64,000 nt of DNA from Octopus vulgaris (lineage: Eukaryota), in assembly GCA_951406725.2 (NCBI GenBank), contig OX597842.1, positions 16,926,001 to 16,990,000 on the forward strand. Direction: 5' to 3'. The stretch's first letter is position 1; every line of letters starts with the position of its first letter. Below the pieces are notes generated by a model. The model ran no database searches. It saw only the letters and a program-made list of their open reading frames with translations, and was not told the origin of the DNA. This document shows, one piece after another, positions 15,890 to 60,472 of the stretch. The position numbers and the translations under genes were made by a program.

Positions 15890-16115
15890 ATGTTTTTTTC
15901 GGTGTTCCGGCATCTTTTCTGAAGGAGGAGGCTATCGTGTTCAGATGTTCTTTGATGCGGACGTGTAACGGTATTCTTGTGCTACCGACATAGAACTTGT
16001 TGCATTTGTTACATTGTATTCTATACACAACATTTACCCGTTGGCATAAATCTATGTCACGGATGGGACAGTTTGTTAGTGTGCATTGATTGTTGTCCCT
16101 TGTTCGTTTCTTTGC
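15890..16115 (-). mobile_element. Penelope-like GIY-YIG endonuclease fragment
   Basis: NVVYRIQCNKCNKFYVGSTRIPLHVRIKEH. Confidence 0.75.
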
Positions 16116-16172
16116 GAGCATACATACGTAAAACATACAAATCTGCGCATAGATACATACATACATACATAA

Positions 16173-16217
<45 letters not shown>

Positions 16218-16298
16218 TGCGTTTGTAGAACAATTGGTATAATGATTAAAATATACAGAAATTAGAAACAATTTGCCAGAAAATTGTGATTTACATAC

Positions 16299-16631
16299 TG
16301 TTTCCGGAAAGTAAAATATACGATAAACATGTGCAATCCTGATCTTTAATTTCTTCGTTGTAAAGCAATCGATGCATATAACACGGGCCATTACAATAGC
16401 TAAAATATTGGCACTCATCGCTGGAAATACACAGACTTGCACATTCTAAACGAGATGACGCGGTTTTTGTAGTTTTATTCTGATCAATTAAGCATTTTGA
16501 TGTTGTGGTTTTTTTGAAGTGAACATCTCTATACGTTGGTTCTCCGGCACTTACAAGAGTCACGAAAAGCAAAAGTGTCAAAGCTGGCAGCAGAAGAGGA
16601 ATCGAATGGTACTGAATTGTTGTCTCCATTC
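16299..16631 (-). CDS. Left gene coding exon 2: signal peptide + PAN/apple-like domain
   Basis: ttttcag|GA ATG...AAC A|gtatgt; hydrophobic LLLPALTLLLFVTLVSA leader; ECASLC...DECQYFSYC pattern with 8 Cys; paralog at 60082-60411. Confidence 0.9.
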
Positions 16632-17032: not shown

Positions 17033-17113
17033 CACACACACACACACACACACCCATATATATATATATATATATATATTGTATCTGAAGTCAATTCCAA
17101 TAGAATTAAGTTT

Positions 17114-17800
17114 ATGTCAAGTAACTCTAAGATTAAAAATTCTATATACCAGTGTATAATCAGTGCTCATAATAAAGTACGATTTTACATTGGAAGCACA
17201 TCGTTAGAGTTGTCTAAAAGAATTTCTATCCATTACACAACAGTTAGGGATAGAAATAAACGTAATAGTACCGGTCTCAGCAAACTGATTTGTGATTTAA
17301 AAGACCACAATGAACAATTTCATTTAGAATGGTTGATTCTCTCAATTTCAATACCCTATTACAAAGGCAAGGAATTTCTGTCTTCTCAATTCTGAGCTAT
17401 TTTTCAATATTTTTTCTAAAAATACTCTAGAAAACACGGTTATAGAGCGAGCATGCAGATGTACGCTTTGGCAAAACACACATTTAGTGCATATAAGTAG
17501 TCTCTATAATTATATATAATTTAAACTTTAATTTCCTTTATATTTAACATTCACTATTAACATCCATACTGTTTCTGTTAGCTACTTATGACGTTATATC
17601 ATGTAACGTTTTTTTTAAACAATATTAATAGCGTTCTGTCAATCGCTATACAAATCCATCAATTTTTGCTAAAATGTCGTATTGATGAGTTTCGTTTTTT
17701 TCACTTTTCCGAAGAGAAGATTGCATTGTTTATACCATTTATTCTTTTGAATAGTATCAGTGGAAGTTTCGAAACATGTGTCGCAAGTAAAAATATTTCA
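17114..17800 (+). mobile_element. Penelope-like 3' fragment (GIY-YIG + degenerate hammerhead)
   Basis: SIYQC...FYIGST...RISIH...LSKLICDLK...LEW; downstream TTGATGA (17682) ... GAAACATGTGTC (17771). Confidence 0.65.
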
Positions 17801-19599: not shown

Positions 19600-22500
19600 G
19601 TTCGTCCTTCGGGTTCGAAGATGATCACTGACATCATCTGGTGGAACTGCCGCTATGAGACCGGAGGTGGCTGGTGAGGCCAATCCGGGCAAGGAAGCCC
19701 CTCCCACAGGTGGGGCAGAAGTGGATAGGGGCCGTGCTACTGGTGCAGGCGGCTCTGGCTTTCCGCATCTGGCGTTTCTGCTCTGCTGACCGAATCCGTC
19801 CTTCCTCGGCTGTCCCTGCTCCTGTGGTGATTGCGCTGCGCCAGGATTAGCGGTCGGCAGCAAGTGTCTCCCAAGTCTCTGTGCCGATGGAGAAGTCTTT
19901 GAGAGAGACCTTGAGACTGTCCTTGAAGCGCTTCTTCTGCCCTCCGACTTTGCGTTTGCCCTGGCTGAGTTCACCGTAGAAGAGCTGTTTTGGGATGCGA
20001 GTGTCGGACATGCGGGAGACGTGGCCCGCCCATCTCAGCTGGGCCTTGCGCATGATCGTGATGGTGCTAGGGAGATCTGCCTGCTCCAGAACTTCCGTGT
20101 CTGGGACTTTGTCCTGCCAGCGGATGTGAAGGAGGTTCCGAAGACACCTGAGGTGGAAGTGGTTTATCTGGCGCTCGTGCCTTCGGTAAGCAGTCCACGT
20201 CTCGCAGCCGTATAGTAGGGTGGTAAGCACGACTGCCCGGTAGACTTTCAGCTTGGTGTTGAGGCTGATTCCTCTCCGCTCCCAGACTTTCTTTCGCAGT
20301 CTCCCAAACGCGCTGCTTGCCTTGGGGATTCTGTTGATGATTTCAGCATCTATGTTGGCATTGCAGGAGAGAGTGCTGCCCAGGTAGGTGAAGTTTTCCA
20401 CCGCTCGTAGGATCCGTCTGTTCACCTTTATCTGAGGCTCATGGTATTGTTTGCCGGGGGCTGGCTGAAACATCACTTCGGTTTTCTTGACACTGATGGT
20501 GAGACCGAAGTTGTCACAGGCTGATGAGAACCTGTCCATCCCGAGCTGCATCTCCTGCTCATCGATTGCATTAAGGGCGCAGTCGTCAGCAAAGAGAAAG
20601 TGTCTGACGACTGTCTCCCTTACCTTTGTGACAGCCTGCAATCTTCTGGAGTTGAAAAGTTTCCCGTCTGTCCTGTACTTGATGTCGATACCGGACTTGC
20701 AGTCCCTGAAGGCGTCGGACAGCATTGCCGAGAACATGATGCTGAACAGTGTTGGGGCCAGGACACAGCCCTGCCTGACTCCGTTGGTCACCTGGAAGGC
20801 TTCAGATGAGTTGCCGTCTTCAAGGACTCTGGCTGTCATTCCGTCGTGGAATTGGCGGACAATTGCAATAAATTTGCTGGGGCAACCAAATTTTCCCATG
20901 ACCTTCCATAGTCCCTCCCGACTGACTGTATCGAAAGCCTTGGTGAGGTCAACAAAGGTCATGCATAGGTCAAGGTGCTGCTCCATGCATTTCTCCTGGA
21001 GCTGGCGGGCGGCGAATATCATGTCAGTGGTCCCTCGACCCGCGCGGAAGCCACACTGGCTCTCAGGGAGAAGGCCTTGCTCCAAGTGTTCCAGAAGGCG
21101 GTCAAGCAGGACTCGGGCCAGGATCTTGCCTGCTATGGACAAGAGGGAGATCCCTCGGTGGTTGTCGGTGGATCTCCTTTCCGCTTATAAATGTGGACGA
21201 TTGTTGCGTCCCGGAAATCTTGAGGGAGTTGTTCCCTGTCCCACATCGACTGGAACAGGCTGGTGAGCTGACTGATCATGGTGGGGCCGCCCGACTTGAA
21301 CACCTCTGCAGGGATGGCGTCAGAGCCTGGAGCTTTGCCGGTGGACATTTTTTTGATGGCTCTGCTCACTTCCTCGACTGCAGGGGGAACAGCCAGCTCG
21401 TGGTTTGTCGGCACCTGGGGGAGTCGTGCGATGGCTTCCTCGTTGATCTGGACTGGTCGGTTGAGCACGATGTTGAAATGCTCCGCCCATCTCTCCAGGA
21501 TCAGCTTCTTGTTAGTCAGGAGTGAGGTTCCATCCGAGCTGAGCAGGGGGGTTGATCCAAAGGAGAACTGCGGTCCATAGACAGCTTTCAGCGCCTCGTA
21601 GAATTTCTTGGTGTCGTGTTTGTCTGCGTATCCCTGAATCTCATCCGCCTTGGCGCTTAACCATGCGTCTTGCATGAGGCGGAGTTTTGCCTGGACTGTG
21701 CTGCGAATGTTGTTGAAAGCAGCCTTCTTTGCCGTGCAGGTGGTGTCATTTTGGTGAGCCCGCAGCAGACGGCGTTTCTCTTCCAGGAGCTTTTGGATTT
21801 CCTGGTCGTTTTCGTCGAACCAGTCCCGGTGGTTCCTCGTAACTTGGCCTAGAGTTTCAAGGGCGATGGAATGAACCGTGTCCCTGAATGATTCCCACTG
21901 CTCATCGATGCTGGACTGGTCATTCCGAATGTCCAACAGCTTGCTGTCCATACGTGACTGGAGATCTTGTGCAGTTAGCTGGTTCTTTAATTTCGTGATG
22001 TTAAGCTTCCTCGTCACTTTCTGACCCTGTGGTCTTCTCTTAGGTCGGATGCAGAAATCCATCCTGGAAATGATGAGGCGATGGGCCGTCCAGCAATCAG
22101 CTCCGCACATGGCTTTGACTAGTCTCACGTCCCGCCTGTCTTTCGCCCTGACGATGACGTAATCTATCAGATGCCAGTGTTTGGAGCGTGGATGCATCCA
22201 TGATGTCTTGTTGCGTGTTGGCAGACGGAACAAGGTGTTGGCGATGGTAAGATCATGAGAGGCACACGCACGCAGGAGGAACTGCCCGTTGTTGTTGCAC
22301 TTTCCGATTCCTTGCTTTCCAAGCACGCGATGCCAGGCTTGGTGGTCAGTCCCGACACGGGCGTTAAAATCCCCAAAGGGGATGAGCTTCCCAGGCTGGG
22401 CTGACGTGATGAGGGAGTCGAGTTCTTCATAGAACCTGTCCTTAACTTCTTCAGGGTTGGTCATGGTGGGGGCGTAAGCGCTGATGATGGTCGCACTAGT

Positions 22501-23551
22501 CTTGTTTCCAAGTGGGAGCTGCATCTTCATCAGCCGATCGTTGATAACCTCGGGGGAGCTTTCCAGTTTCCGCACGTGTACTGACTTGATGGCAAAACCA
22601 ACACCAGCCTCACGACGCTCTTCGCTGCTGCGACCACTCCAAAAGAAAGTGTAGCCGCCGCTTGTCTCTCTGTCAGCTGGCCTTTGTCCGCAAGGCAGGT
22701 CTCGCTCAGTGCTGCGATATCGACATTGTATCGGCTCAGTTCTCTGGCCACCAGGGCAGTTCGTCTCTCTGGTCTGTCCACTTTGGTGTTGTCAAGCAGA
22801 GTTCTCACGTTCCAAGTTGCGAAAGTGAGCACCTTTGTTTGTTTTCTTTCTTTGTTTCGACCGCTTGGAAAGGAACACCGCCAGCCGCGGTTTGCTGACC
22901 AGGGTGAGGTGAGGCAGGCTAAGTTTAGGGCAACCTTTTCTAGCCCCGTCCTCATGCTGGGGAGGCGAGCAGAGCGATCCTGAAGAGAGCTGCTCGGTCA
23001 CTCAGGAGGCTGCCGGACTCCACTGATGCCTCAGTTCAGTGAGGGGCGACCACATGTCCTGAGCCGCCTGTGTGTGGGTTCACGACTGCAGCTCCCAGTG
23101 TATCCTCACCTGCTACTTCGCCGTTTCCCCATCGCCACAGGACTTTGTGATGGTGTCATGATGTCATGACATGCGCGTGACTTGGATTATAGTGAGGGTG
23201 ACTTGCGCAGGATCAGCCTCACTCTCTCGTCCTGGTGCGCCGGATCCAGTGGCAAGACAAAGTCAAGACGGCTGGGGGTAGACCAGGATGCAGGAGCTGC
23301 CGGAAGGTGGCACGCATGGGCACAATCCAACCGCCTTAGGGGCTCCACTCCGGATTTTGGATGGCCATTGACGCATGAGAGAGTTCCTCTGCCCTTTGAC
23401 AGGTTTTGTTTTTAGTCCTGCTGGGTGTCCAAATCACCCTCTTCACCAAGAAATCTTGGTGGGGTTGCCAGTTTAGTCTCCAACGACCCGACCATGTAAC
23501 AGGTTGTACTGGGTTACATGTTACCAGTAGCTCCAAGCGGAGATCTGACAC
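19597..23551 (-). mobile_element. Near full-length RTE-clade (BovB-like) LINE: APE + RT with a few frameshifts
   Basis: ORF pieces 22530-22955 (ATWNVRTL, ALSET), 21133-22575 (SAYAPT, GDFNAR, IDY, KAPGSD) and 19847-21142 (ESQCGFR, FVDLTKAFD, RQGCVLAP, FADD, YLGS); GC-rich; ~600-bp 5' UTR. Confidence 0.95.
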
Positions 23552-23631
<80 letters not shown>

Positions 23632-23639
23632 GCGAGAAT

Positions 23640-26186
23640 GAAGCAACAAGAATGGATAGGTTTTTAGTACAATCGTTTCATACAAGGACAGGTTTTATTA
23701 AAAGTTGCAAAAATTACAGCATATAAACGTGTCCCGTACTCATCAGCTAAAATACATGTGAGTTCTCTAGACATCCTAGTGGTTGAGGCTATACTCATGA
23801 AGTAATGTAGATAATTAAGTAACATAAACAGATTTCAAAAGTTCATTAAAGTTCTTTAAAGTTCTTTAAAGATGATGTACAGTCTTATCACAGAATTTTA
23901 AAAAAAGTCTTAATAGCATCACAGAGGAGGTGACCTAATCCATAGTGCACATATGAATTTCCAGAGATATAATGAGGGATTACATACTCACAGAAGACAA
24001 ATTTATCCATTGTTAATTACAACGAGGTGGGTTTCAATTCCTGCTTATTAGCATTACAGAGAGGGTGAATTAATCCTTTGTATAGATGCACAATTTCCAA
24101 TGGTGTAGATGTAAATTTCCCAGGAATTTCATATTCACAGGCGATAAATTAATCAATGGTTGAACACAATGAGGTAGGTATCAATTCTTGTTATATGATT
24201 AGGTATTTGCCACATTAATCACATTACTGCTATTTACAAGAGGCTGTAGCTATTTAACTTTTAAAGGCTGAAGGGCTTTCTAGAGCTGTATAGAATAGAA
24301 AAGGGAGGGGAATAGAAGAAAAGAGAGAAAATAAAGGAGGAGGGAGCAAAAAGGGGGGGAAGGGGGACTCAAAGAGAAGAGAAAAGAAAAAGAGAATAAG
24401 AAGAAGAAAAAGAAAAAAGAGAAAAGAGAAAGAAATAGGGAAGGAAGGGAAAAAAGAAAAAAGAGGAAAGAAGAAAGAAAAAGAAAAAAAAGAGGGTTCT
24501 AGTTATACAGAAGAATTAGTAGACGGCAAGTCTGGTTTTAATTTACAGGCATCTAGGAATTATAGGAGAATATTATTCTTTGACCAGTAAAACAGCTAAT
24601 TTATTGCTGTTGGAATCAGCTATGAATTTAAAGAGAATCTAAAGAGATAACACAGTTAGGGGTTTAGAGGTCAGATGCTAAAATCACCAGAAAATACATT
24701 AGGAAAAACTAGGTATAATCTTATCAAAAGGTCATTAAAATTTACTTATTTAATTTATTCATTTTATTGTCTTAAGGAGTTGCCGTTATTATTCATACAT
24801 TGACGGACTACAGGTCAAATCTTAGAAGATCATTTAAAAGGTGTTAGGGGATTGTCTATCATAATGAAGATAATCATATTATCACCGAGGGAATAGCCTT
24901 ATTTATTTAATTTTGAAATAGAATTATGGGTCTATAGTAACTCAATCCAATTAATTAGAGTTATGCTAATTTAATTAGATTGAGTTAGGAATTAAAATTA
25001 AAAATTACAATTAAGATTTAAAATTAAGAATTTAAAAATTGTGAGTTTGAAATTAAATAAAGCCTCAATTAAGCAGCGAATGAGTGCTATTCATTTCCCT
25101 GTTCTCAAAAAACTGATGCAGATATAAGGAAAAAGATAACTGTAGTGTGAGAACTCTTAGTTATCTACTTAAAGCAGTGCTATACCAGTAGAAATCAAGT
25201 TATATCTATCTATCTAGTTAAGAATATTCTAATCATTTAAAATATTTTAAAGTCTTCAATTTAGCGTGGACACAAACTTGACCAAGTTCGATATGGTTAT
25301 TCAATAGGTTTCTATGTTTTCTATGCTTTAGAATTTCATATGTCTCCATGGAGCATAGTTGACAACCAACCCTACTATTTTTATACGGAATTGCTCTCCT
25401 AACTATTTCCCAATTAAGGTTATAATTTTTATTATTATTTTTGAGTTCCCAGATTTTGTTTGAAAGTGTGGTGGTACCAGCTTTATGACGTAATTTAAAA
25501 GTCGAGATGTGATTTCTAACTCTAGCTAAAAAATTAATTGTACATCCAATGTAACAATATTTGTTATTCTCCGTGGATATGGTACATTTATAGATTACAT
25601 TATTTTCCCCACATAGACCAGGTGCCGGGCATTTTGATTTTATTCTACACTTACACACAGGAGGAACACCTTCAGGCTTTGGATTATTCTTGGGTAGATG
25701 TTTTAGGTTCCTATTATTTTGGTTATCATTTCTATAGTTGGTGCTGATATCTAAAGTATTGCTATTATTTCTTGATCCTTCTGTTTCATCATTTAGCTCT
25801 AAAGTCCTACCATGATTTCTTATATTATTGGTAATGTTAATATTATCGCTAGTCTTTTTATCCGACTGCATATTGTTGTTATAGATATCACTAATATTTT
25901 CATTCTCCTTATTTTCTCTATTATCCCTATTTCTATTATTTCTATTATTAACATTATTACTTCTATTAATATCGGCATTGCTATTATTACTATTAATGTT
26001 AATGTTATTAGTCATTCTGTGGTTATTAATTTCACCTATGTTTTGATAGTTACTATTGCTGTTTTTATTGTTGGTAGTATTATTACAATTGCTATTGGTA
26101 TTCATGCTGATATTATTATTTTTATTTCTATCTTTCCTGGCTAGTTTAATGTTGTTATTATTAATCTTAGCTATTAAAGTGGACAT
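23640..26186 (-). mobile_element. 5'-truncated Penelope-like element: Asn-rich linker + GIY-YIG, long 3' region ending in a hammerhead
   Basis: ORF 25233-26186 contains CKC..CP...C..NVIYKC...YIGCT...R..NH..TF...LSNKIWELK...WEIV...CQLC; hammerhead at 23662-23752. Confidence 0.8.
23662..23752 (-). ncRNA. Minimal type I hammerhead ribozyme
   Basis: TTTTAG-CTGATGA-GTACGGGACA...TGTCCTTGTAT-GAAA-C-GATT-G-TA-CTAAAA: stems I and II pair, core intact, GUA cleavage triplet. Confidence 0.8.
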
Positions 26187-26305
26187 ATATATATATATAT
26201 ATATATATATGCGTGTATGTGTGCGTGTTCTTATATATATATCTATATCTCTATCTCTATCTACCTATCTATCTACACACAGATTGTGTGTGTGTCTGCG
26301 TGTGA

Positions 26306-39332: not shown

Positions 39333-39340
39333 TGTTTATG

Positions 39341-39391
<51 letters not shown>

Positions 39392-39805
39392 ATATATATA
39401 ATATATATATATATGTATATATATATGTATATATATATATGTAAATATAATATATGTATATATAATATATATATATATATGTATATATATTATATATGTA
39501 TATATATAATATATATAAAATATATATATATAATATATATATATATATGTATATATATATAATATATATATATATATAAATTATATGTATATGTATATAT
39601 AATATATATATATATATTATATGCATATGTTTATATAATATATATATTATAAAATAAATATCAGAGAATGGTCACTATATGGCTCACTCTAGCACCAGTT
39701 AATCCAAAAGGTTTCAACCACAAAAATACATGTTTCCCATGAAAGTCAGTACGATTGTTAGCTCACACGGACAGGGCAAATAAAAAATAACAAAAATACA
39801 GATTA

Positions 39806-39887
39806 TTTTGGGACAATTGTTTCGCTATTAATGAATTAAATGTAATTTTACTTACAAAAAAATCCACTTGTAGCTCGTCAGCCAAAA
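39806..39887 (-). ncRNA. Type I hammerhead ribozyme (minus copy; second copy 40339-40420 has a stem I mismatch)
   Basis: Exact reverse complement of the plus-strand motif. Confidence 0.85.
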
Positions 39888-40784
39888 CTATCTGGATGAA
39901 ATCCACTCAATCACACGCCAGATTTTACCATAACGATAAATACGCGTGTGGTTCAATTGATTACATCCGACGTTATAATTCAAATTCCCCAACTAACAGC
40001 GCGCCAAACTTTCACGGAAAACAAATACAGCATTTAGAAATAAATGCAGCATAATTATAATTAATTAATAAGGGTGAGAGAATTAGATACTAATTTAATA
40101 GAATATCTATTCAACACCAAGTGGCCTAGTGCTCCGAGAAACCTGGATTATTATAATATTTTATAATATATTATAATATTTACAAAATAAATATAAGAGA
40201 GTGGTCACTATATGGCTCACTCTAGCACCAGTTAATCCAAAAGGTTTCAACCACAAAAATACATGTTTCCCATGAAAGTCAGTACGATTGTTAGCTCACA
40301 CGGACAGGGCAAATAAAAAATAACAAAAATACAGATTATTTTGGGACAATTGTTTCGCTATTAATGAATTAAATATAATTTTACTTACTAAAAAATCCAC
40401 TTGTAGCTCGTCAGCTAAAACTATGTGGATGAAATCCACTCAATCACACGCCAGATTTTACCATAACGATAAATACGCGTGTCGTTCAATTGATTACTTC
40501 TGACGTTATAATTCAAATGCCCCAACTAACAGCGCGCCAAACTTTCACGGAAAACAAATACAGCATTTAGAAATAAATGCAGCATAATTATAATTAATTA
40601 ATAAGGGTGAGAGAATTAGATACTAATTTAATAGTATATCTATTCAACACCAAGTGGCCTAGTGCTCCGAGAAACCTGGATTATTATAATATTTTATAAT
40701 ATATTATATAATCAATTGAACCACACGCGTATTTATCGTTATGGTAAAATCTGGCGTGTGATTGAGTGGATTTCATCCAGATAG

Positions 40785-40866
40785 TTTTGGCTGACGAGCT
40801 ACAAGTGGATTTTTTTGTAAGTAAAATTACATTTAATTCATTAATAGCGAAACAATTGTCCCAAAA
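40785..40866 (+). ncRNA. Type I hammerhead ribozyme (first of six plus-strand copies)
   Basis: TTTTGG-CTGACGA-GCTA[43-nt loop]TAGC-GAAA-C-AATT-G-TC-CCAAAA; predicted cleavage after GUC at 40860. Confidence 0.9.
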
Positions 40867-43816
40867 TAATCTGTATTTTTGTTATTTTTTATTTGCCCTG
40901 TCCGTGTGAGCTAACAATCGTACTGACTTTCATGGGAAACATGTATTTTTGTGGTTGAAACCTTTTGGATTAACTGGTGCTAGAGTGAGCCATATAGTGA
41001 CCACTCTCTTATATTTATTTTGTAAATATTATAATATATTATAAAATATTATAATAATCCAGGTTTCTCGGAGCACTAGGCCACTTGGTGTTGAATAGAT
41101 ATACTATTAAATTAGTATCTAATTCTCTCACCCTTATTAATTAATTATAATTATGCTGCATTTATTTCTAAATGCTGTATTTGTTTTCCGTGAAAGTTTG
41201 GCGCGCTGTTAGTTGGGGCATTTGAATTATAACGTCGGATGTAATCAATTGAACCACACGCGTATTTATCGTTATGGTAAAATCTGGCGTGTGATTGAGT
41301 GGATTTCATCCAGATAGTTTTGGCTGACGAGCTACAAGTGGATTTTTTTGTAAGTAAAATTACATTTAATTCATTAATAGCGAAACAATTGTCCCAAAAT
41401 AATCTGTATTTTTGTTATTTTTTATTTGCCCTGTCCGTGTGAGCTAACAATCGTACTGACTTTCATGGGAAACATGTATTTTTGTGGTTGAAACCTTTTG
41501 GATTAACTGGTGCTAGAGTGAGCCATATAGTGACCACTCTCTTATATTTATTTTGTAAATATTATAATATATTATAAAATATTATAATAATCCAGGTTTC
41601 TCGGAGCACTAGGCCACTTGGTGTTGAATAAATATACTATTAAATTAGTATCTAATTCTCTCACCCTTATTAATTAATTATAATTATGCTGCATTTATTT
41701 CTAAATGCTGTATTTGTTTTCCGTGAAAGTTTGGCGCGCTGTTAGTTGGGGCATTTGAATTATAACGTCGGATGTAATCAATTGAACCACACGCGTATTT
41801 ATCGTTATGGTAAAATCTGGCGTGTGATTGAGTGGATTTCATCCAGATAGTTTTGGCTGACGAGCTACAAGTGGATTTTTTTGTAAGTAAAATTACATTT
41901 AATTCATTAATAGCGAAACAATTGTCCCAAAATAATCTGTATTTTTGTTATTTTTTATTTGCCCTGTCCGTGTGAGCTAACAATCGTACTGACTTTCATG
42001 GGAAACATGTATTTTTGTGGTTGAAACCTTTTGGATTAACTGGTGCTAGAGTGAGCCATATAGTGACCACTCTCTTATATTTATTTTGTAAATATTATAA
42101 TATATTATAAAATATTATAATAATCCAGGTTTCTCGGAGCACTAGGCCACTTGGTGTTGAATAGATATACTATTAAATTAGTATCTAATTCTCTCACCCT
42201 TATTAATTAATTATAATTATGCTGCATTTATTTCTAAATGCTGTATTTGTTTTCCGTGAAAGTTTGGCGCGCTGTTAGTTGGGGCATTTGAATTATAACG
42301 TCGGATGTAATCAATTGAACCACACGCGTATTTATCGTTATGGTAAAATCTGGCGTGTGATTGAGTGGATTTCATCCAGATAGTTTTGGCTGACGAGCTA
42401 CAAGTGGATTTTTTTTGTAAGTAAAATTACATTTAATTCATTAATAGCGAAACAATTGTCCCAAAATAATCTGTATTTTTGTTATTTTTTATTTGCCCTG
42501 TCCGTGTGAGCTAACAATCGTACTGACTTTCATGGGAAACATGTATTTTTGTGGTTGAAACCTTTTGGATTAACTGGTGCTAGAGTGAGCCATATAGTGA
42601 CCACTCTCTTATATTTATTTTGTAAATATTATAATATATTATAAAATATTATAATAATCCAGGTTTCTCGGAGCACTAGGCCACTTGGTGTTGAATAGAT
42701 ATACTATTAAATTAGTATCTAATTCTCTCACCCTTATTAATTAATTATAATTATGCTGCATTTATTTCTAAATGCTGTATTTGTTTTCCGTGAAAGTTTG
42801 GCGCGCTGTTAGTTGGGGCATTTGAATTATAACGTCGGATGTAGTCAATTGAACCACACGCGTATTTATCGTTATGGTAAAATCTGTCGTGTGATTGAGT
42901 GGATTTCATCCAGATAGTTTTGGCTGACGAGCTACAAGTGGATTTTTTTGTAAGTAAAATTACATTTAATTCATTAATAGCGAAACAATTGTCCCAAAAT
43001 AATCTGTATTTTTGTTATTTTTTATTTGCCCTGTCCGTGTGAGCTAACAATCGTACTGACTTTCATGGGAAACATGTATTTTTGTGGTTGAAACCTTTTG
43101 GATTAACTGGTGCTAGAGTGAGCCATATAGTGACCACTCTCTTATATTTATTTTGTAAATATTATAATATATTATAAAATATTATAATAATCCAGGTTTC
43201 TCGGAGCACTAGGCCACTTGGTGTTGAATAGATATACTATTAAATTAGTATCTAATTCTCTCACCCTTATTAATTAATTATAATTATGCTGCATTTATTT
43301 CTAAATGCTGTATTTGTTTTCCGTGAAAGTTTGGCGCGCTGTTAGTTGGGGCATTTGAATTATAACGTCGGATGTAATCAATTGAACCACACGCGTATTT
43401 ATCGTTATGGTAAAATCTGGCGTGTGATTGAGTGGATTTCATCCAGATAGTTTTGGCTGACGAGCTACAAGTGGATTTTTTTGTAAGTAAAATTACATTT
43501 AATTCATTAATAGCGAAACAATTGTCCCAAAATAATCTGTATTTTTGTTATTTTTTATTTGCCCTGTCCGTGTGAGCTAACAATCGTACTGACTTTCATG
43601 GGAAACATGTATTTTTGTGGTTGAAACCTTTTGGATTAACTGGTGCTAGAGTGAGCCATATAGTGACCACTCTCTTATATTTATTTTGTAAATATTATAA
43701 TATATTATAAAATATTATAATAATCCAGGTTTCTCGGAGCACTAGGCCACTTGGTGTTGAATAGATATACTATTAAATTAGTATCTAATTCTCTCACCCT
43801 TATTAATTAATATATA

Positions 43817-44222
43817 TATTATATATACAGGAGTGGCTGTGTGGTAAGTAGCTTGCTAACCAACCACATGGTTCCGGGTTCAGTCCCACTGTGTGGCATC
43901 TTGGGCAAGTGTCTTCTGCTATAGCCCCGGGCCGACCAATACCTTGTGAGTGGATTTGGTAAACGGAAACTGAAAGAAGCCTGTCGTATATATGTATATA
44001 TATGTATATATGTGTATGTTTGCGTGTTTGTCCCCATAGCATTGCTTGACAACCGATGCTGGTGTGTTTACGTCCCCGTCACTTAGCCGTTCGGCAAAAG
44101 AGACCGATAGAATAAGTACTGGGCTTACAAAGAATAAGTCCCGGGGTCGATTTGCTCGACTAAAGGCGGTGCTCCAGCAGGGCCGCAGTCAAATGACTGA
44201 AACAAGTAAATGAGTAAAAGAG
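43817..44222 (+). mobile_element. SINE family A, full length
   Basis: CAGGAGTGGCTGTGTGGTAAGTAGC...GACTGAAACAAGTAAATGAGTAAAAG. Confidence 0.88.
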
Positions 44223-48439: not shown

Positions 48440-50487
48440 TTATTTCAAAACATTTGCCATAAAGGCAGTACACAAATTAAGTTAGCTTTGCGGGCTGGAC
48501 GAGGACATTAATGAAGTGAATGATAATGAAAGACAGATGATAAGGATGGGAGAAGACAAAAAGCGCCCGCCGACTTTCGCTTCTCTAAAACATTGTTCTT
48601 TTTAAAGATAAACACAAAACGAGGTATTAAACCTCTTACAATTTTTCCAATTTTTGGACTTAGCAGTCTATTATTAATAAAAATGCAAAACGAGCTATTA
48701 AACCTCTTTCAATTTTCCAATTTTTGGACTTAGAAGTCCATTATTAATACTAAAAGTTCAATAATTACATATCGTCCTCGAAATAGCTTGTGCCCGCGCC
48801 TCCACCATCATACACGCCTCCCTCAGAACGTAATCAAGTTCCGAGTTCGCGTCGCCCGGGACCAAGCTATAATCTTCATTGAGCTCCTTTAGCCCAAGCG
48901 TCACGTCGAACGCCACGGCCTCCACAGCTATCTGCGGAGGCCATTCGGGGTCAGGTGTGAAGGCTAAAGGAGCTCCCTTGTGGTACTCTTCCATCATTTT
49001 TTTTCCAATTTCTCCTCCTCTATAGAAGAGGACCAATACGTTCAGTTCTTTCGTTGGCGGCACAGTTCCCGCCAACGTCTGCGGCTCATGGATATCAGCC
49101 GCCCGACCTTTCTTTCTTTTTCTCCTCCTTCTTTTGGGGAGACTGCTGACCCAGGGGACTCCGTCACCAGACACGGGGGATCGCTATCCCCTCCGCCACC
49201 TGAGCGTTCTTTGGCGAGCAGCCATTGTTGCTCGCCTGTCTCTTTCTTTTCGTGGAGGCAACCTCCTCCACGACGTCCACCGTCTCCCCCTCCAATGAGG
49301 GGGCGGCGGGCGCCTTTTCCCCTTCATGCTCCGGGGCACCACCACGGCCCCCGGGACAATTCCTCTTGATATGTCCGGGCTTCAGGCACAGGTGACACTT
49401 GGGGGGCGTCCCTCGAGTATCACCGGGTACCTGTGCCCAGCCATTCTCAGGAAGTCCCGGGAATTTCATTTCTCCCACGGCCACCGGTGTCCACAGGGTC
49501 AAAGTTGCCTTTGACCCCTCCCAGGCGACCGCGGGAGCCATTTTCACACTCAGTAGCCTGGGTCCGCTATCCCCCAGGCCTCGCCGGATGGTCTTCTCGA
49601 TCCATTCCGCCTCCATGCCCGGGGGCAGCCCACAAACCCAGGCTCTTTTTACTTTTCTGCCACAATACGAGGGGAGGAACAGAATTTCCTCTCCCTCCAG
49701 TGGCTCGCTAGCAAATCTGCTAGCTTCCTCGGGGGTACCAAACAGCAACCACACCGTTGCAAATTTACTCCCCCGAAAAATAAACTTTATCGTTGGTAGG
49801 TGGTCCCCCAACTCTTTCTCTATGGTGCTCCTGTCGAAGAGGGCGATAGCTCCACGCGACCTAGAATAGGTTCGTAGGACCACCGTCCTCTTCTCAAGAC
49901 TTTCAATCCACTGCTTGGGTGGGACAACCTCCCATTCCAAAGCAGTGGTTTCTTTTGTTGCCATGATTTTGAAAAAAAGTTCAACTAAAAGTTCAAAGTC
50001 CAATAAGAAAAAAACACAGTGACAACAGAAAGACAGAACAGAGAAAAGGACGAAGGAAGACAGTTCAAATAATGGCAACACAGTTCTGCAACTGGTAATC
50101 CTCACGAAACAGGGTACTCCTAGTTGCAGCACACTTGGTTCTCCGTGGTAAATCCAAGCACAATTGGTTCTCCGTGGTAAATCCAAGCGAACAAATTAAT
50201 TTTTGAGGAGGGTCTATGCCTCTTCAAAATACACAATTCTCACTAAAAGGTGAGACAATAAAGACGCCAACAGGCAGAACAAATACATCCAAAGCAAAGT
50301 GAAGCTTATTACGCGCAGAAAAGTGTTAACACTAATTAACATTAATGCCAAAAAAGTATTAACGGCAAGCAATAAACCTCACTATGCTTCCAAAGATATC
50401 CAAAATATCCTACCTGTTGCCGTAAAATGTTCAATAATTCACGTTAACACGTGACATTTGCCGGAGCAAAAAACAGCACGTCTGTCT
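48440..50487 (-). mobile_element. L1/Tx1-like element with ORF1 only (CCHC zinc knuckle), no RT
   Basis: ORF from MATKETT (~49964) with CHLCLKPGHIKRNC, continuing by frameshift into 48758-49174; 5' AGACAGACGTG; 3' AATAAA; ~14-bp imperfect TSD GGT(T)A(G/A)GAAGCTACT. Confidence 0.75.
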
Positions 50488-60081: not shown

Positions 60082-60411
60082 GAATGGAAACATCAATTCA
60101 ATGTCATTTGATTCTCCTGTTGCTGCCAGCTTTGACGCTTGTAGTTTTCGTGACTCCGACGACTGGAGAGTCAGCGAACAGAAATGGTTTATTCAGAAAA
60201 ATCTCTTCTTCAAAATGCATAAGTGACCAGAGAATAACAACTGCAAAAACGGTGTCTGCAATAGAATGTTCGAGTTGGTGCATGTCACAAGACGAATGCC
60301 AGTATTTTAGCTATTGTAAAGGTACATGTCATATACATGGATTGTGGTACGACAAAGAAATCGAAGATTATGATTGCAACTGTTCATTGTATATTTCGTT
60401 CCCAGAAAACG
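60082..60411 (+). CDS. Right gene coding exon 2: signal peptide + PAN/apple-like domain
   Basis: ttttcag|GA ATG...AAC G|gtatgt; 8 Cys conserved with the left paralog. Confidence 0.9.
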
Positions 60412-60472
60412 GTATGTAAATCAGCATTTTCTTGCATAATGTTCTGATTTTGATATATTTTAATCAATAAGA

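Follow-up and report, generated by a model that had tools for sequence, protein, structure and literature searches.

How does a repeat that encodes no protein and carries a hammerhead ribozyme in every unit come to lie in chromosomal DNA? The question is raised by a tandem array on contig OX597842.1 of Octopus vulgaris (assembly GCA_951406725.2), within the 64,000-nt stretch from 16,926,001 to 16,990,000, which we analysed as a whole and call the window. We think it likely that this array is one insertion of a dispersed non-coding hammerhead element and that a Hydra-clade Penelope-like element supplied the reverse transcriptase-endonuclease that copied it into a (TA)n microsatellite, with priming from both sides at two fixed sites on the RNA, probably a 535-nt circle. 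In the core of this proposal, paired internal target-primed reverse transcription of the Penelope type by a Hydra-clade enzyme, our confidence is high.

The array and its dispersed family

The array holds eight type I hammerhead motifs, six on the plus and two on the minus strand (Table 1), at the positions and the spacing of about 533 bp given by a first-pass annotation of the sequence. The exact hammerhead pattern matches seven of the eight and nothing in 100 shuffles; a relaxed descriptor matched none of 2000 shuffles of the unit. The eighth motif, on the minus strand, has the stem I mismatch that the annotation had described. Cut sites on the plus strand lie 533, 533, 534, 533 and 533 nt apart, and the six plus units, rightly called near-identical, are 99.5-100% identical to one another and differ by singletons only. 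Protein-coding capacity is absent, as had been claimed: the longest ATG-started frame in the unit is 19 amino acids (aa) in sense and 52 aa in antisense. Between its flanking TA runs the array consists of two head-to-head arms that are unequal and not mirror copies; the last ~12 nt of the left arm have diverged. The unit of the family is 535 nt, and the window array is without 2 nt in every unit. Its inner minus unit (40345-40708, minus strand) also carries 7 substitutions in ~130 bp, against 0-2 in other units, possibly an error cluster or a mutation shower near the inversion. The Rfam Hammerhead search that had been proposed as a check returned no hammerhead at the gathering threshold or at E<=10, likely because loop II is 43 nt long.

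A genome search gave 926 candidates, and the best 40 scored include full-unit matches of 97-100% on many contigs. With exact patterns we found 2,087 ribozyme 19-mers, 872 junctions of one type of insertion end (B) and 426 of another (A), and reversed control patterns matched nowhere. These at least 872 insertion ends correspond to at least 870 scattered insertions, among which monomers, dimers and multimers are all found dispersed. The window array is thus one insertion of a young dispersed family, of the sort the annotation had foreseen, and not a local satellite. Long A-to-B spans on contigs C1 and C2 turned out to be long arrays, and there was no upstream continuation into an open reading frame (ORF) among the end-selected loci examined.

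Through a loose end in public contigs we reached a sister retrozyme family with a unit of 525-533 nt, ~70% identity and 163 exact motif matches; the idea that this loose end, present in three runs, marked an autonomous element was dropped, as it is the sister retrozyme. The sister family (L142-L153, L254-L271) is older, and in many of its copies stem II has a U-U mismatch at its base. More short hammerhead-bearing or related repeats (L238:6951-7262, L249:5490-5588, L272, L273 and L310) suggest further retrozyme families in this genome.

Across 21 ribozyme copies from the two families, the catalytic core is invariant and position N7 variable. Both sides have changed in six of seven stem I pairs and three of four stem II pairs, and the covariation score was reached by none of 500 shuffles, a control that ignores relatedness; 9 of the 21 copies lack an intact first pair in stem II. 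Core and stem II are retained in 262 of 290 sampled copies. At the level of sequence, these data support structural constraint on the ribozyme. Within the young family, 1 of 49 shared variants falls in the ribozyme, compared with 19/181, a depletion that is not significant (p=0.08). The monomer folds at z = -6.5 as a linear and about -8 as a circular molecule relative to shuffles (sister units, -4.5 to -6.9), and 18 of 102 pairs in a consensus fold of ten units from both families are compensatory. For a lone hammerhead with N7 = C, an alternative helix that traps the core is predicted to be more stable than the active fold by 5.6 kcal/mol; in the N7 = A subfamily this gap is 1.3 kcal/mol, and less misfolding is predicted. 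The palindromic stem III is predicted to pair between two copies at -6.4 kcal/mol. These predictions fit the dimer-dependent cleavage that the annotation had expected and that passages of PMC4209133 describe for hammerheads.

Insertion ends and the enzymes they point to

We examined about 130 of the at least 870 loci in detail. The fetched loci formed 142 clusters, of which nine were incomplete and dropped, leaving 133 complete loci. Unit positions are numbered from the first base after the predicted cut (40861 is position 1). In this numbering, 24 of 32 A ends lie at position 161 and 31 of 32 at 158-164, while 35 of 36 rows of B ends lie at 279-292; in these 32 A ends and 36 B rows the 3' end is never at the ribozyme cut. 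TA runs adjoin 210 of 214 3' ends examined. The circularly permuted ends that had been anticipated were therefore not found as such: 3' ends are fixed at two sites, and only 5' ends vary.

The two ends obey a strict rule. The 133 complete loci comprise 82 with two arms, 28 with a single B arm, 21 with a single A arm and 2 complex ones. Among the 82, 77 are A+B, none is A+A or B+B, and five combine B with a non-standard end, a single duplicated locus accounting for three of the five. When 20 more regions were fetched, most of the dropped loci became complete, and the set grew by 4 single arms and by 16 two-armed loci, each of them A+B. Two-armed loci in which both ends lie at fixed sites thus proved to be A+B in 93 of 93 cases; 13 of these had been picked as A/B pairs and 80 had not. 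On contig C1, where exact ends number 74 B and 30 A, 14 of 14 neighbouring pairs are head-to-head A+B (p~4e-6). The sister family obeys the rule in 13 loci, beside two exceptions (L254, L257) and two complex loci. Separately, we observed that in the duplicated loci L136, L137 and L138 on C6 one arm stops 6-13 nt past the cut and is followed by unrelated sequence.

Both arms of a locus appear to come from one template. Comparison of subfamily markers between the arms of 45 loci gave 164 agreements and 2 disagreements; divergence is 0.3-0.4% within a locus versus 2.3% between loci; such sequence evidence supports copying of both arms from one template or haplotype. Arms range from a few dozen nt to about 15 units and cross up to 15 cut sites, and 319 of 320 cut-site junctions are of unchanged length. 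Of 75 two-piece junctions between arms, 17 are blunt, 33 have an overlap of 1-3 nt, 5 have a longer overlap and 20 carry inserts. With A+B ends fixed, cut sites cleanly read through and one haplotype per locus, the annotation's suggestion that the array is itself a product of reverse transcription holds up well.

If a Penelope-like enzyme made these insertions, then elements that encode such an enzyme might end in the same way. The window itself contains a 5'-truncated Hydra-clade Penelope-like copy (Table 1), a separate element that lacks homology with the array unit and that likely shows the kind of enzyme that would mobilise the array. Its family, W1, has intact ORFs of ~950 aa and several genomic copies with intact frames of ~980 codons, and the motifs RIRW, DKT, CxCx5C and CxH, which define the Hydra clade in the portion of PMC8557442 available to us, are present in the protein-coding elements. 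In 11 of 12 two-armed W1 loci, one end lies 36 nt and the other ~156 nt past the element's own cut; the remaining locus falls 20 nt short. Families with proteins of 899-908 aa end at ~60 and ~215 (6 of 6 loci) and family F4 at ~200 and ~375 (its 1 locus), again one of each, so that intact Hydra-clade elements follow the rule in 18 of 19 two-armed loci. Because the two-armed insertions of the array family end at two fixed points like those of protein-coding Penelope-like elements, a Penelope-like enzyme likely inserts the array.

Further observations concern these autonomous elements. Family W1 is active and has an asparagine-rich linker and a 1.6-kb 3' region; its full ORF has no Pfam match and its profile no PDB match. 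Loci L234-L253 and L294-L313 represent seven or more lineages of the Hydra clade. Most of these have intact ORFs (778-1091 codons), and every lineage bears a hammerhead of its own as well as two fixed ends separated by 80-175 nt. In printed copies of family F5, CCGAAGA replaces CUGANGA. Two more GIY-YIG Penelope-like fragments lie in the window at 15891-16250 (minus strand) and 17087-17392 (plus strand).

Collectively, we propose the following course of events. The array would be transcribed by read-through, to which editing-like changes in one run lend weak support. The hammerheads would then cleave the transcript, probably as dimers, and ligation would yield monomer circles, as in other members of the class. 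The enzyme, presumably of the Hydra clade, would cut both strands of (TA)n, and priming would start at A (161) from one DNA end and at B (285-289) from its partner. The target, the fixed ends and the pairing of one A with one B are observed. Each enzyme would pass the ribozyme site and stop after anything between a few dozen nt and ~15 units, and the two cDNAs would be joined head-to-head, either blunt or via 1-3 nt of overlap. Some long arrays would later grow or mix by local recombination, a probable cause of the mosaic units they contain. A bolder version falls somewhat short of an even chance in our estimate. Here, each locus would be the direct record of reverse transcription on a two-headed rolling circle. 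An asymmetric pair of Hydra-clade enzymes would sit on a single circular RNA produced by the ribozyme, at two fixed sites separated by ~125 nt, and each would extend one end of the cut (TA)n before the two products fused head-to-head. Penelope-like elements in general would owe their tail and their inverted copies to this mechanism, and adenosine-to-inosine (A-to-I) edits made in the RNA would be written back into the genome.

Hints of expression and editing come from public runs and from the genome. The unit is present in 19 of 22 listed runs (7 studies), none of them recorded as RNA and hence uninformative on expression. A closed 565-nt contig (535+30) in run X1, a run presumed to be RNA, was rejected as proof of a circle, as sparse, low-coverage tandem DNA gives an identical cycle. 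In run X2, guessed to be RNA, A>G or T>C accounts for 41 of 43 differences. For 18 of 25 listed sites the change occurs in none of some 300-380 genomic pieces per site, and in one contig region 8 T>C changes fall within ~50 nt, compared with a genomic maximum of 4 in 105 nt. These changes weakly resemble A-to-I editing of both strands, matched DNA being absent. Of the genomic variants, A>G accounts for 23 of the 87 that are locus-fixed and for 14 of 181 singletons (p=1e-4), and A>G variants show an excess of G on their 3' side (p=0.002, one post hoc test). Alternatives to editing are enzyme error and selection for RNA structure.

The template and rival origins

Which RNA did the enzymes copy? 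A cleaved linear monomer was rejected as the main template, for there is no run-off at the cut: arms read through it with nearly all junctions intact, and 1 of 194 starts at position 1 (12 start in positions 1-20, with 7.7 expected; p=0.09). We regard a circle as the template with modest confidence and consider it unlikely that paired Penelope-type priming took place on an uncleaved linear multimeric transcript, for which no circle would be needed and the ribozyme would be regulatory or later-acting. Several observations nevertheless suit that transcript: uncleaved RNA predominated as substrate in vitro (PMC11167929), misfolding is predicted for the monomer hammerhead, clean cut-site junctions are equally compatible with a linear multimer, and it is in linear register that 5' ends coincide in greatest excess (16 vs 5.9). 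Variation among loci argues the other way. In 35 multi-unit loci there are 26 distinct fixed variant sets, 10 loci have private fixed variants, and no two of the loci examined have two within-locus polymorphisms in common. Because the fixed variant sets are many and no pair of polymorphisms recurs, a repeated single-unit bottleneck is suggested by the sequences of the about 130 loci covered, out of at least 870. The covariation of the ribozyme stems also speaks against such a template, and truncation would presumably shorten linear-templated arrays in each cycle unless their length were regenerated.

The remaining rivals concern how the arrays took shape. That a single terminal repeat was inserted and then grew by unequal crossing-over, as stated in the discussion of bioRxiv 10.64898/2026.07.22.740005, we judge very improbable as the origin of the array, even though long arrays (L040, L058, L069) are mosaic, with a 4-unit period in L058, and therefore local recombination also acts. 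Local growth is hard to square with inverted arms that are often both multimeric and have private variants in common, with the 34 of 50 arms picked only by their end that cross at least one cut site, and with the singleton-only differences among the window's six plus units. Slightly less probable again is fold-back self-priming of one product, proposed for rotifer Penelope in the part of PMC3846280 available, in which the inverted arm arises with no second priming. One arm is contained in the other in 52 of 83 simple two-armed loci, the two 5' ends lie within 50 nt of each other modulo the unit in 33 of 83 (16.7 expected), and 4 of 70 arm junctions are exact palindromes, all as fold-back would have it; in the other 31 of 83 loci, however, neither arm lies inside its partner, and in some (L181, L206, L210, L233) the two do not overlap. 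Fold-back copying cannot produce these and is excluded as the sole route, and it leaves the strict one-A-one-B rule without a reason. Finally, assembly is difficult where TA-rich DNA holds inverted repeats, and 7 substitutions cluster in the inner minus unit, but a local satellite or an assembly artefact is hardly credible given hundreds of dispersed loci with identical ends, arms that are unequal and not mirror images, and contigs of an independent run that show the B end followed by TA.

A number of points weigh against our own proposal as well. No partner family could be named among the products of one endonuclease and two N-terminal searches (150 candidates scored in each), because none of the seven Hydra-clade families has significant sequence in common with the unit, although other families may exist; the similarity of F4 to the sister family has p~0.03, uncorrected, among 28 tests. 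In the sister family, locus L254 pairs a B end with an end ~35 nt past B, and L257 pairs an A end with position 85. The mosaic long arrays mean that array length does not come purely from reverse transcription. In the anole element studied in vitro, the main substrate is uncleaved RNA, the ribozyme is dispensable and the start site is the same on either strand (PMC11167929). The 5.6 kcal/mol misfolding is predicted for the lone hammerhead of the window's own subfamily, 8 of 9 Xenopus retrozyme dimers stayed uncleaved (bioRxiv 10.64898/2026.07.22.740005), and the covariation control for the stems takes no account of relatedness among copies. As for the circle, the coincidence of 5' ends over multiple laps that it predicts is weak (17 vs 10.8, p=0.03), a homogeneous source array transcribed uncleaved would leave a nearly identical genomic pattern, and no cleavage, circle or transcript end was seen in contigs of the runs presumed to be RNA.

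Table 1. Coordinates of the array, its motifs and the Penelope-like copy in the window
Feature	Position	Strand	Remark
Left flank, (TA)n target microsatellite	39337-39650		
Left arm	39651-40708	-	2.0 units; outer (3') end at site A (~161), 5' end at 170
Head-to-head junction of arms	40706-40708		~3 nt overlap
Right arm	40706-43811	+	5.8 units; 5' end at ~380, outer (3') end at site B (285)
Right flank, short TA-rich run	43812-43828		
Type I hammerhead motif, intact	39806-39887	-	
Type I hammerhead motif, one stem I mismatch	40339-40420	-	
Type I hammerhead motif	40785-40866	+	predicted cut after 40860
Type I hammerhead motif	41318-41399	+	predicted cut after 41393
Type I hammerhead motif	41851-41932	+	predicted cut after 41926
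Type I hammerhead motif, 44-nt loop II	42384-42466	+	predicted cut after 42460
Type I hammerhead motif	42918-42999	+	predicted cut after 42993
Type I hammerhead motif	43451-43532	+	predicted cut after 43526
Cut-to-cut monomer, 533 nt	40861-41393	+	strongly self-paired
Site A in a full unit (position 161)	41021	+	fixed insertion end; putative reverse-transcription start
Site B in a full unit (positions 285-289)	41145-41149	+	fixed insertion end; putative reverse-transcription start
5'-truncated Hydra-clade Penelope-like copy	23627-26264	-	own hammerhead 23662-23752; ends in (TA)n
GIY-YIG end of ORF in truncated Penelope-like copy	25233-26264	-	

The window has other features as well. A GC-rich long interspersed nuclear element at 19847-22997 (minus strand) has endonuclease and reverse transcriptase frames that are frameshifted (Pfam RVT_1, E 2e-34). 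Two similar frames of ~110 aa with a hydrophobic N-terminus, at 16294-16629 (minus) and 60084-60416 (plus), have weak PAN-domain matches below cutoff (E 0.006-0.03) and are possibly small secreted paralogues. A 343-aa frame at 49167-50195 (minus) with a weak zinc-knuckle match is likely a retrotransposon ORF1, and a partial protein match of a co-resident transposon ORF is named Octopus sinensis, with which the annotation's cephalopod label is consistent.

Retrozymes and Penelope-like elements compared

With one hammerhead per unit, no ORF, a GC content of 32%, dispersed copies and a self-paired monomer, the array family would belong, as the first-pass annotation had proposed, to the known class of metazoan retrozymes without long terminal repeats (non-LTR retrozymes), and its self-cleavage and circles would follow by analogy with that class. 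Tandem low-GC non-coding units with one type I hammerhead each are described there (bioRxiv 10.64898/2026.07.22.740005 and passages of PMC7229834), as are a short stem III with a palindromic loop, a self-paired monomer and co-resident Penelope-like elements. The unit had been thought unusually long, but 533 nt falls inside the published range of 51-972 bp (bioRxiv 10.64898/2026.07.22.740005). Retrozyme papers use pattern descriptors, and in the portions available an Rfam match is not a defining feature. Unlike those retrozymes, as far as the published descriptions examined in part go, the octopus family has two fixed ends and head-to-head arms. Mobilisation by Penelope was inferred there from co-occurrence and similarity to the pseudo-long terminal repeat (pLTR); here no pLTR homology was found in the seven families, yet the insertion ends obey the Penelope rule. 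Circular RNA was demonstrated there, whereas the octopus family is known here from genome sequence.

The likeness to Hydra-clade Penelope-like elements, as far as the available part of PMC8557442 describes them, extends to the (TA)n target, a canonical hammerhead, 5' truncation, partial tandems and an inverted 5'-truncated copy with a tail at one end only. The unit differs from them in having no ORF, and so neither reverse transcriptase nor GIY-YIG endonuclease, and its tail is 124-128 nt long (80-175 nt in the autonomous families of this genome), compared with the published 30-40 bp. By its sequence, then, the unit would insert like a non-autonomous Hydra-clade element but fails the test of pLTR homology. 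A Penelope tail at one end is already described in passages of PMC8557442 and PMC3846280, and PMC11167929 traced it to two internal starts of reverse transcription; the one-of-each end rule is, to judge from the literature found, not on record. Our searches found no paper on an octopus retrozyme or on such a rule, with subscription journals, Repbase and supplements mostly outside their scope, and the octopus repeat annotation (PMC13282606) reports recent Penelope-like activity and, in the part available, does not contain the word ribozyme.

In the papers cited, it is unsettled how retrozymes re-enter DNA and why Penelope-like insertions are tandem, inverted and one-tailed. The anatomy of the octopus insertions ties a retrozyme to Penelope-type paired priming and makes this mechanism testable. 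The family offers a 535-nt ORF-free substrate, two mapped starts, a (TA)n target and several intact Hydra-clade ORFs, so that an in vitro test of circle versus linear template and of one versus two sites would be straightforward. In addition, inverted repeats are built into about a thousand insertions and are likely to supply double-stranded RNA for editing. The nearest experimental counterpart is Anolis Poseidon in vitro (PMC11167929), which likewise has two internal starts downstream of the ribozyme and an AT-rich target, and in which both DNA strands are cut and extended. Its two sites are adjacent and show no strand preference in vitro, whereas those of the octopus family lie ~125 nt apart, one for each DNA end.

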